Positions 38,869-56,180 of a DNA stretch of 64,000 nucleotides are shown one piece after another. This DNA comes from Candidatus Krumholzibacteriota bacterium (GTDB taxonomy: Bacteria > Krumholzibacteriota > Krumholzibacteriia > Krumholzibacteriales > WJIX01): the NCBI GenBank assembly GCA_034520215.1, contig JAXHNR010000002.1, positions 78,060 to 142,059 of the forward strand, given 5' to 3'. Position numbers and translations under genes: made by a program. Within the stretch, counting starts at the first letter, position 1. Each line of letters starts with the position of its first letter. Below the pieces are notes generated by a model, which ran no database searches, had not been told where the DNA came from, and saw only the letters and a program-made list of their open reading frames with translations.

Positions 38869-39384
38869 TCAGGTCCAGGACCGAACAATGAATATCACGA
38901 GTATTCCCGTCGCGATGGCGAACTTGGCGAAAAAGGCCCATAGCTTGCCGACGAATGCCCAGAACCCCACGTTGATAGCGTTCTCCATCTTCTTGTACTG
39001 GATGTATTCGGCGGCTACCGCCCCGGCGAAGGCTCCGAACAGCCCGAAGATCACGCTTCCTATGACCGGCATGGCGGACGTCCCCAGCACAGCTCCGACA
39101 ATGCCGCCAGCCAGCGCCCCGACAGCACCCCACTTCGAGGCGCCTTTCTTAATCGCGACGGCCGACCCAAGCAGCACTTCTATGACCTCCCCGATCACCA
39201 CCAGCACGACCATCACCACCCACCACTGCCACCCGATAACGGTGAACTTGTTGGCCAGATCATATATTAATATGACTCCCAGACTAATCCATCCTCCCGG
39301 CAGTCCCGTAAATATGAGAAGATTTAAGAGGAATACCAAAAAATAGAGGAGGACGAGTCCCGTGTGCTGCAGAACCGATACCAA
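38869..39384 (-). CDS. DUF456-family small membrane protein
   Basis: Gly/Ala-rich TM helices, N-terminal FTGLPGGW motif typical of DUF456; markedly higher GC and different codon usage than flanks. Confidence 0.55.
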   Translation of the reverse strand: MVSVLQHTGLVLLYFLVFLLNLLIFTGLPGGWISLGVILIYDLANKFTVIGWQWWVVMVVLVVIGEVIEVLLGSAVAIKKGASKWGAVGALAGGIVGAVLGTSAMPVIGSVIFGLFGAFAGAVAAEYIQYKKMENAINVGFWAFVGKLWAFFAKFAIATGILVIFIVRSWT

Positions 39385-39530
39385 AACCTGCTCCTTTCAC
39401 AAGTCCATATAACATGAACAACTCGCCGTAATGAAACAGCCGCCGACTAGAACGATGACAGCTCTTATCTTGAACATGAACCTTAAAAATTCTAAGACAT
39501 CCGTCTTTTTATGTCAACGGCATCCCGGCC

Positions 39531-39837
39531 AGGACTTTCCCCAATTTTTATTACCACGCAGGAGATTAATTAATTCGTAAAGTATGCGGCTGAATGATAT
39601 TTTCAAAATCGTGGTCAATTCCCCCGGCGAGTGAATTGTACGCTCTGCGCCTCGGGCTCGCTCTTTCTGCCCCTTCGGGTCAGAAATCCTTGCCCGCTCG
39701 CCCTCCGGAGGGTTTTGAAAATATCATTCAGCCGCACTCATCAGCAATGAAAGCCCTATTCCACTTACTAATCCTGATAACTGATTGTATCTCGCAATGT
39801 TATTACAATACTTGCCGAATTTTCAGAGGGAACTCCA
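39531..39837 (+). mobile_element. 307-bp MITE-like non-autonomous element, copy 1, flanked by 10-bp direct repeat CATCCCGGCC
   Basis: Direct repeats at 39521..39530 and 39838..39847; ends GGACTTTCCCC.../...GGGAACTCC; internal 25-bp inverted repeat GCGGCTGAATGATATTTTCAAAA / TTTTGAAAATATCATTCAGCCGC around a GC-rich core; ~85-90% identical to copies 2 and 3 over the 3' two-thirds. Confidence 0.7.
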
Positions 39838-39959
39838 ACATCCCGGCCTCTCAGAAACAGACATAATATAAAGAAGTTGCCTTGAGGCCTTCTTTGGCTT
39901 ATAATCTCAAACCGTTAAATAATTAGCTTGTTTTTTATAACCGGTCTGGATGTTTACGA

Positions 39960-53415: not shown

Positions 53416-54660
53416 TTATCCTTTGCTGTTTTTTGATATCCTCGGTATCTCCCTTAAATTTACAAAACTTATCCCCCTTTTTCCAGCTTCGTCTTCCATC
53501 CACAGCAGATCTTTGAAACTTTCCCGCCTTACATGCAGAATCCCGAGCGCCCAGCCTCTTCTTTCCGCGATATCCATTATTTTCACCATATTACTCCTGA
53601 CATCCGCCCCCCTGTTATCGAGAAAAATATCGTTCCTCAGAGACGGCATGCCCATTGAAGGGGCGATTTTACCCGCGACCGACTTAGAAGAGGTAAGACT
53701 GTCGAAAAAGAAGAGGTTGTGCTTTCGGCATACCGAGAGGACCGCTTTCATCACCCTTGAATCCTCGGTAGCTTTTGACCCCTGATGATTGTTCATTCCC
53801 ACAACTCCCGGGGTATTAGAGATCGCGTCTTCAACAATTCCTTTAATCCTCTCATCACTCATAGAGACCCGCACAACAGGAACGCTGCCGCAGTCATCCG
53901 CTCCCCCTCTGGGTTCCATGGGCAGGTGACACAAAGCATCTTTCCCGGCTTTGTCTGCAAGCCGGCAGATATCCTTTGAATATTTAAGCCCCGGTATGAC
54001 AGATACGGTAATGTTTATATCAAGCCCGAGAAAATCCCTCACCAGTCTATTGTTGAAAAAACCGAAATCATCCACCACTAATGCCACAACCGGCCGCTTT
54101 TCAGGAGCAAGAACAGCATCAGCGCTTTTTGATATAATACACCTGTGAGTAACGCGGTTTCTTGTCCCTATCTCCATCTCTATTTTGTTTCCGGAGTCCC
54201 TTTCATAACAGCTTCTGACGCGCCCCCCTATTTCTTCGACCTTCATGTCTATTATATTATTTATCTTTATCAATGAACAGTCGGCGGGCACGTTGGTTCT
54301 CACAAGATATATATACCCGGATTCTACTCTCTCACCCGGTATGATCTCAATCGTATCCTTCTTGATTCCGTATTGTTTAAGAGCTTCCAGAAGACTGCCG
54401 GCGATATCTCTCCGTACATCTTCGTACTTTCCGCCGAAACCCATATCAAGCAAAAATATTCTTCCGTGAGTGGTGCTGAAATATCTTGCCGTTCCAAAGG
54501 CAATTATGACAAGAAGTGCGAGAAGCCCCGCGAATATCTTGAGTCTTGCCGCTATCTGCTTCTTTGTTTTCCGCTTCTTCGCGGCCAATTGGAAGTCTCC
54601 CTTCGAAATAGAATAGTATTTGCCGTTATAGAAGATGATCGTATGACGAGCGCGCGGCAC
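53416..54660 (-). CDS. Divergent polysaccharide deacetylase family protein (YibQ-like) with N-terminal TM segment
   Basis: TM near the N-terminus; C-terminal VALVVDDFGFF...HLPMEP YibQ/DUF610-type motifs. Confidence 0.6.
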   Translation of the reverse strand: MPRARHTIIFYNGKYYSISKGDFQLAAKKRKTKKQIAARLKIFAGLLALLVIIAFGTARYFSTTHGRIFLLDMGFGGKYEDVRRDIAGSLLEALKQYGIKKDTIEIIPGERVESGYIYLVRTNVPADCSLIKINNIIDMKVEEIGGRVRSCYERDSGNKIEMEIGTRNRVTHRCIISKSADAVLAPEKRPVVALVVDDFGFFNNRLVRDFLGLDINITVSVIPGLKYSKDICRLADKAGKDALCHLPMEPRGGADDCGSVPVVRVSMSDERIKGIVEDAISNTPGVVGMNNHQGSKATEDSRVMKAVLSVCRKHNLFFFDSLTSSKSVAGKIAPSMGMPSLRNDIFLDNRGADVRSNMVKIMDIAERRGWALGILHVRRESFKDLLWMEDEAGKRGISFVNLREIPRISKNSKG

Positions 54661-54723
54661 CTCGCGCAGTGCATGGATTATAAATACTCCGCGGGTGCAA
54701 TGTCAAGAGAGGTAAAATATTTT

Positions 54724-55030
54724 GTGGAGTTTCCCCAATTTTTATAACCTATAAGGTAGTCGATGATTTGTAACAGTATGCGGCTGATTGATATTTTCAA
54801 AATCGTGGTCGATTTCCCCGGCGAGGAAACCGCCACTCCCACCTCGGGCTCGCTCTTTCTGCCCCTTCGGGCCAGAAATCCTTGCCCGCTCGCCCTCCGG
54901 AGGGTTTTGAAAATATCAATCAGCCGCACTCATCAGCAATGAAAGCCCTATTCCACTTACCAATCCTGATAACTGATTGTATCTCGCAATGTTATTACAA
55001 TACTTGCCGAATTTTCAGAGGGAACTCCAA
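54724..55030 (+). mobile_element. 307-bp MITE-like element, copy 2, flanked by 14-bp direct repeat AGGTAAAATATTTT
   Basis: Direct repeats 54710..54723 and 55031..55044; ends GTGGAGTTTCCCC.../...GAGGGAACTCCAA; internal inverted repeat GCGGCTGATTGATATTTTCAAAA / TTTTGAAAATATCAATCAGCCGC (compensatory changes relative to copy 1). Confidence 0.75.
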
Positions 55031-55044
55031 AGGTAAAATATTTT

Positions 55045-55093
55045 CGAGCTCTCAGGGGAGAGCTGTAAAAAAGCCCTCTGTTTTCGAGGGCTT
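55045..55093 (-). terminator. Rho-independent terminator(s) downstream of lipoprotein gene 55137..55793
   Basis: On the minus strand AGCCCTC-GAAAACA-GAGGGCT followed by TTTTTTAC; a second hairpin CAGCTCTC-CCCT-GAGAGCTC just downstream. Confidence 0.55.
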
Positions 55094-55136
55094 GAATATG
55101 AGAATTATAAATCTTTTTATAATTAGTTCCGGCGCA

Positions 55137-55793
55137 CTATTTGGGCACATCCCGCGCACGGTATAAAAGATACTTTTCCGGATCTTCGGGGTCGGGGCCG
55201 ATGAAAAATTCAACATCGGAATCTCCGTTGTAGATTTTTGTCTCTCCCGGATTATCAGGGTCAGGTAATTCAAAGGTAAAAAAGTAATTTACCTTTTTAC
55301 TCCAGAAACCATCTCCCATACCACTCTCTTCAGTCCAGTCAGAGTCAAGACCAGAATATTCACTCAGAGTAATGTTTAATGTTCCTACGGCATTATTGAA
55401 TATTCCTTGTGTCCCCATCCACTCCTCTTGGTACGAAAGGATTTCCCCATATTCACTTACATCAGTTGGCTGATTGTACCAGATATAGCCGTCAGAAAAT
55501 TCCGGTTCCGGCCGCTGATCCGGTTCAAGAAGCAGTTCCTTGTACTTTTCTATATCTTTTTCCTCATAGACCCTGTCTATAATTTCAATACAATGATCCT
55601 TCTCCGTTCGATCGGGCCACGGTTCTTCATTTACCGGCTGATCTGTTGTTTCCTTTGGGTCAAGTATACATCCTGATGTTATAATAACCGAGAAAATCAA
55701 GGTTAAACTCAGTGCCGCCTGCAGTAATCTTCTAATCTTCATTGTCTGTATACCTCCTGGGCACATACAAATCACATGTTTATAATACCACAT
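55137..55793 (-). CDS. Acidic lipoprotein (218 aa), bracketed by element copies 2 and 3
   Basis: Signal + lipobox IITSGC; Asp/Glu-rich mature part; own terminator. Confidence 0.6.
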   Translation of the reverse strand: MWYYKHVICMCPGGIQTMKIRRLLQAALSLTLIFSVIITSGCILDPKETTDQPVNEEPWPDRTEKDHCIEIIDRVYEEKDIEKYKELLLEPDQRPEPEFSDGYIWYNQPTDVSEYGEILSYQEEWMGTQGIFNNAVGTLNITLSEYSGLDSDWTEESGMGDGFWSKKVNYFFTFELPDPDNPGETKIYNGDSDVEFFIGPDPEDPEKYLLYRARDVPK

Positions 55794-55830
55794 ATATAAA
55801 TAATATACAAGCTTGAAAATAATATTACTA

Positions 55831-56137
55831 TGTGGAGTTTCCCCAATTTTTATAACCTATAAGGTAGTCGATGATTTGTAACAGTATGCGGCTGATTGAT
55901 ATTTTCAAAATCGTGGTCAATTCCCCCGGCGAGGGAATTGCCACTCCCGCCTCGGGCTCGCTCTTTCTGCCCCTTCGGGTCAGAAATCCTTGCCCGCTCG
56001 CCCTCCGGAGGGTTTTGAAAATATCAAACAGCCGCACTCATCAGCAATGAAAGCCCTATTCCACTTACCAATCCTGATAACTGATTGTATCTCGAAAAGT
56101 TATTACAATACTTGCCGAATTTTCAGAGGAAACTCCT
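55831..56137 (+). mobile_element. 307-bp MITE-like element, copy 3, flanked by 9-bp direct repeat TATTACTAT
   Basis: Direct repeats 55822..55830 and 56138..56146; hairpin GTGGTCAATTCCC-CCGGCGAG-GGGAATTGCCAC at 55913..55943; inner inverted repeat 55883..55911 / 56013..56037. Confidence 0.75.
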
Positions 56138-56180
56138 GTATTACTATATATCTTAAAAAAACTGCCACCCTGTTTATTTA

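Follow-up and report, generated by a model that had tools for sequence, protein, structure and literature searches.

A promoter-seeking MITE of Krumholzibacteriota carries an internal, separable and conserved three-way-junction module

Three copies of a short mobile element are found in the stretch of DNA analysed here (64,000 nucleotides of contig JAXHNR010000002.1 from a Candidatus Krumholzibacteriota bacterium, hereafter the window). The segment 55887-56036, for which a structured RNA had been predicted, is the inner module of the third copy, a 307-bp MITE (55832-56138). The best explanation overall, to which we give a probability of about one half, is that this central MITE module has a selected fold and works as a single-stranded hairpin, perhaps in read-through RNA.

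The element is a MITE, that is, a non-autonomous transposon, of Krumholzibacteriota. This identification, which we regard as nearly certain, rests on the terminal repeats, the target duplications, the copy number and the empty sites. The terminal inverted repeats of 11-15 bp read GGAGTTTCCCC... and ...GGGGAACTCC (the right end, which faces the left end GGAGTTTCCCC..., is also written ...GGGAACTCC, and GGAGTTTCCCCAA is the MITE terminal repeat sequence). In L-type copies these repeats are TTGGAGTTTCCCCAA and TTGGGGGAACTCCAA, of which the window copies carry slightly degenerate versions. Among copies, the element measures 234-308 bp, typically about 305 bp, and shows no conserved reading frame. 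Direct repeats of 8-10 bp (14 bp once), beginning 2 nt outside GGAG...CTCC, flank 10 of 13 copies. Besides the three window copies, at least two more are present in the same MAG (P0001 and P0005), five in JAWODM01 and others in metagenomes. No match to the TIR was found outside the known copies when the window and the fetched loci were searched, so that no autonomous IS partner was seen there.

The three window copies all lie on the + strand. Copy 3, delimited by the repeat family, the alignments and an orthologous empty site in L008 and L010, has terminal inverted repeats GTGGAGTTTCCCCAA (left end) and GAGGAAACTCCTG (right end) and stands between two unstranded 9-bp target-site duplicates, TATTACTAT, at 55823-55831 (single in the L008 empty site) and 56139-56147 (from the empty-site comparison). 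Copy 2 (54724-55030, inner module 54779-54928) is flanked by the 14-bp duplication AGGTAAAATATTTT (54710-54723 and 55031-55044), and copy 1 (39531-39838, inner module 39585-39736) by CATCCCGGCC (39521-39530 and 39839-39848). Orthologous loci without copies 2 and 3 occur in a Krumholzibacteriaceae MAG (L008) and on a metagenome contig (L010); in these empty sites the target segment is single and both intergenic regions are short. Copies 2 and 3, in direct orientation (54724-56138), flank a lipoprotein gene (55137-55793), 100% identical to U5O15_07255 of a Candidatus Krumholzibacteriota MAG at NCBI. The probable start codon of this gene, at 55742, is accompanied by the ribosome-binding site AGGAGG and a lipobox. 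A composite transposon made of these two copies around the gene was considered and rejected, because the gene is syntenic in a relative without the elements: a 68%-identical orthologue is found in the same gene order in the Krumholzibacteriaceae MAG and in several metagenome contigs. Copies 2 and 3 are thus two independent promoter-proximal insertions.

The 25-bp inverted repeat on which the original prediction was built is present (arms 55887-55912 and 56011-56036) and encloses a core of 66% G+C, against about 35% for the arms and flanks. The prediction had weighed it against the terminal repeat of a transposon, arguing that a transposase-binding repeat would conserve sequence and not complementarity. 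This argument fails, since in a DNA inverted repeat complementary arms are identical arms; moreover, the repeat is internal, the real terminal repeats being the outer GGAGTTTCCCC and GGGGAACTCC. The idea that the inner repeat is itself a nested MITE was also rejected, as it has no flanking duplication and was never found alone with those arms in the genome scan.

A genome-wide scan using a pattern of the arms only returned five copies, all in one MAG (Ca. Krumholzibacteriales JAWODM01). The spurious ORF that covers the G+C-rich core was used as a query against protein databases and the DNA encoding the matches was then taken. This peptide search led to eight further, far more divergent copies (L007, L013, L014, L018, L019, L020, L021 and L022), and a protein-database search with a chimeric query of all other frames gave nothing. 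A BLAST search of plasmid and phage collections with the element produced no match. Pattern scans of viral contigs (arms, TIR, two core segments, L020 arm) retrieved nothing but one chance 18-mer match to the L020-arm pattern (L023), and the metagenome scan retrieved only an unrelated A+T-rich palindrome (L006). Overall, no sequence relative was detected outside Krumholzibacteriota by the genome, metagenome, viral, plasmid, phage and Rfam searches. In all, alignment A10 contains 16 distinct copies, drawn from at least five assemblies and metagenomes. They represent only about ten independent lineages, and recombination between copies is evident.

Several copies have a composite history. Copy 1 is a mosaic, with a left flank 66% and a right flank 99% identical to copy 2, its left half belonging to another subfamily. 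Copy 3 and P0001 carry the P2 variant of copy 1 (P2 is the first hairpin of the core, see below) in a copy 2 backbone, and L021 has two arms from different subfamilies. Such mosaics point to recombination or conversion between copies. Irregular ends were also encountered: L003:2395-2760 and L013 have no recognisable target duplication, and in L004 12 nt, made up of the terminus and part of the target, are duplicated again (TTGGAGCGGCAG). These features suggest recombination between copies or imprecise repair. At L005:1117-1223, a partial copy of the second subfamily directly adjoins a full copy, and its right end GGGGAAAGTCCT matches the left end of copy 1, AGGACTTTCCCC; here the insertion of a newer copy took place next to an older copy's end.

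The insertion sites follow a simple rule. In 11 of the 13 copies with recognisable ends, a hexamer resembling a -35 box is found exactly 3 nt beyond the target duplication (4-5 nt in two copies). The hexamer is TTGACA in seven cases, TTGACT in two and TTGAAA in two; it is oriented away from the element and has a -10-like hexamer 15-18 nt downstream. Nine copies have it beside their left end, two beside their right end. These flanks are those of the window at 39512-39517 and 54701-54706 and of L001-L004, L013, L014, L018, L021 and L022; one more copy, L019, has the same geometry when inspected by eye. Both window hexamers are host TTGACA boxes on the - strand, 3 nt outside the duplication. The one beside copy 2 (54701-54706) belongs to TTGACA-18-TATAAT, the promoter of a deacetylase gene (53416-54660), and the one beside copy 1 (39512-39517) to TTGACA-17-TAGAAT, the promoter of a DUF456 gene (38869-39384). 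For L022, the gene served by the adjoining promoter encodes a tRNA. In the empty site of copy 2 (L008 and L010) the host promoter TTGACA-N18-TATAAT is intact; the promoter therefore pre-exists and the rule reflects a choice of target, not a promoter carried by the element. A fixed spacing from a short host motif is also a property of the IS1202 family, which inserts 5 bp from XerC sites (PMC10132070); here the motif is the -35 box TTGACA, 3 bp from the duplication. Our literature search found no described element with a preference for -35 hexamers.

The module itself, of about 150 nt, is a three-way junction composed of a closing stem (P1), a hairpin (P2) and a helix (P3) that bears another hairpin and precedes a G+C-rich palindrome. 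In copy 3 (coordinates on the + strand), P1 is formed by the 5' arm TGCGGCTGATTGATATTTTCAAAATC (55887-55912) and the 3' arm GGTTTTGAAAATATCAAACAGCCGCA (56011-56036), with one A.A mismatch. The core between the arms amounts to 98 nt (55913-56010), or about 102 nt if the arms are taken as a 23-nt repeat. It is bordered by an A4 tract, invariant in 15 of 16 copies, and by a T4 tract, invariant in all 16. In intact lineages P1 measures 24-26 bp and exists in at least three different sequences, complementarity being kept. P2 (55913-55944) is a bulged 12-bp hairpin, GTGG-T-CAATTCCC / loop CCGGCGA / GGGAATTG-CCAC, in which the bulged T is conserved and the loop identical in 14 of 16 copies. The stretch TGCCCGCTCGC is, like the P2 loop, nearly invariant across copies. 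The junction is completed by P3alt, in which GGGC (55954-55957) pairs with GCCC (56000-56003), the latter overlapping the palindrome CCCTCCGGAGGG. This palindrome (P4, 56001-56012) is followed by TTTT and has undergone one double change, in L018.

The second hairpin, P3b (55964-55986), reads TTTCTGCCCC-TTC-GGGTCAGAAA in copy 3, with a 3-nt loop and a C.T mismatch. A hyper-stable C(UUCG)G tetraloop had been pointed out in this region. The letters CCCC-TTCG-GGG are indeed present (55970-55979), but a tetraloop is not conserved: the register common to the copies, TTTCTGNCCC / GGGNCAGAAA, is a 10-bp stem, perfect in L007, L020 and L021, that carries a variable loop of 3-4 nt, the loops seen being UUC(G), UCC(G), UGU, UGC, UGAC, CUGAA, UGG and ACA. 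Two further pairings were considered and rejected, namely the RNAalifold helix CGGGC/GCCCG (GCCCG at 55992-55996), which has no double change and six broken cells, and a pseudoknot between the P2 loop and CTCGCC, which, on inspection of the alignment, is broken in L014 and L018.

Folding of both strands had been proposed as a check of the original prediction. The free energy of the 155-nt stretch is -75.4 kcal/mol (z = -7.3) for the + strand and -84.5 kcal/mol (z = -9.2) for the - strand, values that no sequence among 200 shuffles equals. The exchanges that had been noticed between window copies are real as well: the A/T swap between the arms of copies 1 and 2 with its matching change (columns 21/154 of alignment A5), and the covarying P2 pairs that distinguish copies 3 and 2 (A-T versus G-C in columns 44/64, C-G versus T-A in columns 48/60). 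The proposal that pairing is preserved rather than sequence extends far past the three window copies. A nine-copy alignment has 53 pairs, 98% paired, of which 11 show double changes. The 16-copy alignment A10 has 89.5% of its cells paired. Changes on both sides affect 22 of its 52 pairs, a figure that none of 500 shuffles reaches and that compares with 2-8 in slid-partner controls. These double changes are distributed over P1 (11), P2 (6), P3alt (3 of its 4 pairs, in L020, L018 and L014) and P3b (2). The arms of L020, unrelated in sequence to those of the other copies, are complementary at 24 of 25 positions.

The divergent copy L007 is informative in this respect. Compared with the other copies, its identity rises from 52-56% in the flanks to 65-74% in the arms, 82% in P2 and 88-90% in the central core. 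Almost all of its stem substitutions are matched on the opposite side or mend a mismatch, and its sequence, folded alone, adopts the architecture of the other copies. Decay is also seen. Private disruptive mutations or recombinant arms occur in w1, w3, L002, L003, L013, L018 and L021; the hairpin P2 contains an A.C mismatch in copy 2, and its 3' side has decayed in copy 1 through a 2-nt insertion and substitutions. Since single copies have decayed, selection seems to act on propagating lineages and not on each locus. From these data we infer that the fold itself is very probably under selection, the unit acting as a single-stranded hairpin.

The original prediction went further and read the compensatory changes as selection on a folded RNA. 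The conserved structure holds up. As to the molecule, the non-Watson-Crick cells of the four helices were sorted by type. In RNA, the + strand would have G.U at about 13 of these events and the - strand at about 16, and transversion mismatches number about 32; wobble-type mismatches are equally common on both strands and no commoner than transversion mismatches, so that RNA and single-stranded or cruciform DNA are not distinguished. Compensatory change alone does not discriminate between them, and the sequences cannot show whether the module works as RNA or as DNA. The odds that the module acts as RNA may be put slightly below even.

The main rival explanation assigns the module to the mobility of the element at the DNA level. 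It would be a cruciform, a folded single-stranded DNA or a site for a symmetric protein, serving as a hinge that joins the ends of the 300-bp element or as a cis site for the transposase. The absence of strand asymmetry among wobble mismatches agrees with such a role, as does the folding of both strands with DNA parameters, which is equally good (z = -8.6 and -9.4). Conservation between lineages while single copies decay would also be expected of a function serving the element, not the host. However, L020 possesses the module without MITE ends, and the orientation of copies shows no replication-strand bias of the kind associated with single-strand transposons. Cruciform extrusion across a 100-bp spacer is kinetically unfavourable, and no requirement for internal hairpins is known among DDE-type elements that duplicate their target. 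Finally, the asymmetric bulge and the loop, both conserved, are better accounted for by a single-stranded hairpin, of RNA or of single-stranded DNA, than by a duplex operator. We consider a DNA-level role unlikely, while keeping it as the foremost competitor of the reading preferred here.

A second alternative is that a free-standing small RNA gene hitch-hikes in the MITE, its product being made from a promoter of its own or released by cleavage of the 25-bp stem, and acting in trans. A core conserved well above its surroundings, the near invariance of the P2 loop and of TGCCCGCTCGC, and the occurrence of the module outside the MITE in L020 would all suit such a gene, and the closing stem, of constant length (24-26 bp) and arbitrary sequence, resembles a processing stalk. 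Against this, a scan of the module for internal promoters gave no strong or convincing sigma-70 promoter, and none is conserved in or beside it. The best candidate, TTGAAA-16-TACTAT (9/12), belongs to a single subfamily and faces away from the core. Moreover, the helices have decayed in several copies, neither strand can be assigned, and no Rfam family matches. The covariance-model search that had been suggested gave no gathering-score match to Rfam 15 in the window and nothing meaningful at E <= 10 on copy 3; at E <= 1, only flanking tRNAs were matched in the eight divergent copies. A tRNA/tmRNA scan gave nothing. Taken together, a small RNA gene appears improbable.

The promoter-like sequence just mentioned lies on the - strand of the left arm of L-type copies (L004:3439-3466, L005:1034-1061, L002:2851-2824 and L003:2501-2474), where it is weak, outward-facing and aimed at the neighbouring gene. 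The corresponding -10 box of the window copies is TACTGT, below the threshold of the scan. An internal sigma-70 promoter in the arms was rejected, because in L007 an AT-to-TA swap is compensated in the other arm yet would damage the -10 box.

Even less probable, in our opinion, is the absence of any selection on the fold. Complementarity would then have arisen by template switching in quasi-palindromes, conversion of arms and recombination between copies, and core conservation would reflect a recent spread. The mosaic structure of copy 1, copy 3 and L021 and the lack of any preference for wobble pairs over other mismatches speak for these processes, and short-loop hairpins are classic substrates of palindrome correction. 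However, they leave unexplained the 88-90% identity of the unpaired core next to flanks of about 52% in the same copies, the invariant P2 loop and bulge, and the closing stem of L020, of constant length and wholly different sequence. As for a small protein gene, to which the - strand ORFs at 55828-56037 and 54678-54929, publicly annotated by NCBI as "hypothetical protein" (U5O15_01510, U5O15_10115, R6U43_00365 and R6U43_01900), and the open frames of 40-89 codons called in several copies might point, it has next to no likelihood, because the start and end differ in every copy, the ORF extends into flanking DNA, 1-nt indels break or shift the frame in w1, L019, L022 and L018, indels between copies are not multiples of 3, no Pfam domain is found and all six frames are open as a result of the G+C-rich core; the annotation is almost certainly wrong, an artefact of this palindromic core.

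In the reading that we favour, a selected fold working as a single-stranded hairpin, the module would act in RNA made by read-through entering from either side; this is our best guess. Entry from both sides is proposed as the reason why neither strand tolerates wobble pairs preferentially. All copies are intergenic, and in four of them the upstream gene reads into the right end. The canonical terminator of the gene upstream of copy 2 precedes the element, so that little read-through is expected there. The locus L020 is of special interest. The conserved core (L020:1931-2078) is found there without MITE flanks, the only such case, and its arms (TAGCAGTTAACCCTTGAG.AAAACC) have the unrelated sequence noted above. 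A malK-like gene converges there with a permease gene, both being ABC-transporter genes; the 151 bp that separate them are taken up exactly by the module, and one arm begins with the TAG stop codon of the malK-like gene. With genes converging on it, both strands must be transcribed into the module at this locus.

What the module could do in such transcripts may be considered helix by helix. The long perfect P1 stem might be a double-stranded RNA site for RNase III-type processing or for stabilisation. P2 (- strand) and the palindrome (+ strand), the terminal hairpins with U4 tracts, might be weak outward-facing terminators that insulate the neighbouring promoter. A U4 tract does follow P2 on the - strand and CCCTCCGGAGGG on the + strand; the terminator scan calls no hairpin in the module, and L007 is devoid of the - strand U tract after P2. 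Termination alone does not account for a P1 that is constantly 25 bp long. A specific role at 3' ends or as an insulator is accordingly put forward as a tentative and rather doubtful suggestion.

A broader and still less likely idea is that of a portable structured nucleic-acid device tied to a promoter-seeking transposon. In one version, the device would be a mobile bidirectional insulator or processing hairpin, enabling the element to settle 3 bp upstream of a -35 box without disturbing expression. In a bolder version, it would be a folded RNA or single-stranded DNA cofactor that helps to recognise promoter DNA. If there is such a device, L020, with its swapped closing stem between convergent genes, could be a domesticated or an ancestral copy.

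Comparable folded repeats are known in other bacteria. The bcr1 element of the Bacillus cereus group, MITE-like and about 155 bp long, is transcribed; compensatory changes keep its double-stranded structure, and some copies have lost stability (Delihas, 2011; PMC3184786). The present element resembles bcr1 in being short, non-coding and mobile, in its flanking direct repeats and in its compensatory changes. It differs from bcr1, with its 5-bp repeats and whole-element fold (PMC3184786), by a fold that is internal to a 305-bp element, by separate TIRs, by duplications of 8-10 bp and by promoter-proximal targeting. Transcription of bcr1 is documented in the literature, whereas the present element is known from its sequence. 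In Neisseria, the hairpin RNA of Correia elements (CREE/nemis) binds RNase III and is cleaved or protected, and these elements can influence adjacent genes (PMC2649163). The element described here shares with them its MITE nature, its position beside genes and the combination of an inverted repeat with a conserved core. In Correia elements, however, the hairpin is made of the terminal repeats themselves, whereas here it is internal and has a G+C-rich three-way-junction core. Furthermore, Correia elements create promoters at their ends, whereas the promoter next to the present element belongs to the host and is already there in the empty site. Correia elements duplicate TA. The duplications of 8-14 bp found here, against TA for Correia and 5 bp for bcr1, and the internal position of the fold place the element outside both families, as does its taxon. 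The ERIC (or IRU) sequences of enterobacteria are imperfect palindromes of about 127 bp, with a sequence highly conserved among species, that are located in transcribed intergenic regions and presumably act as RNA hairpins. Unlike them, the present element has clear terminal repeats and target duplications, and Rfam and the BLAST collections revealed no sequence relationship.

Hairpin-forming MITEs are well known, and a bare folded repeat would be ordinary. Less ordinary is an internal and separable three-way-junction fold, closed by a stem whose length is fixed and whose sequence is free, that is kept across divergent lineages of an uncultured phylum. The module is a well-supported candidate for a new structured motif. 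It is conserved and separable inside a MITE, and thereby carried by a promoter-seeking transposon. The target rule close to TTGACA would, for its part, be an unusual route by which a transposon reaches safe or regulatory landing sites.
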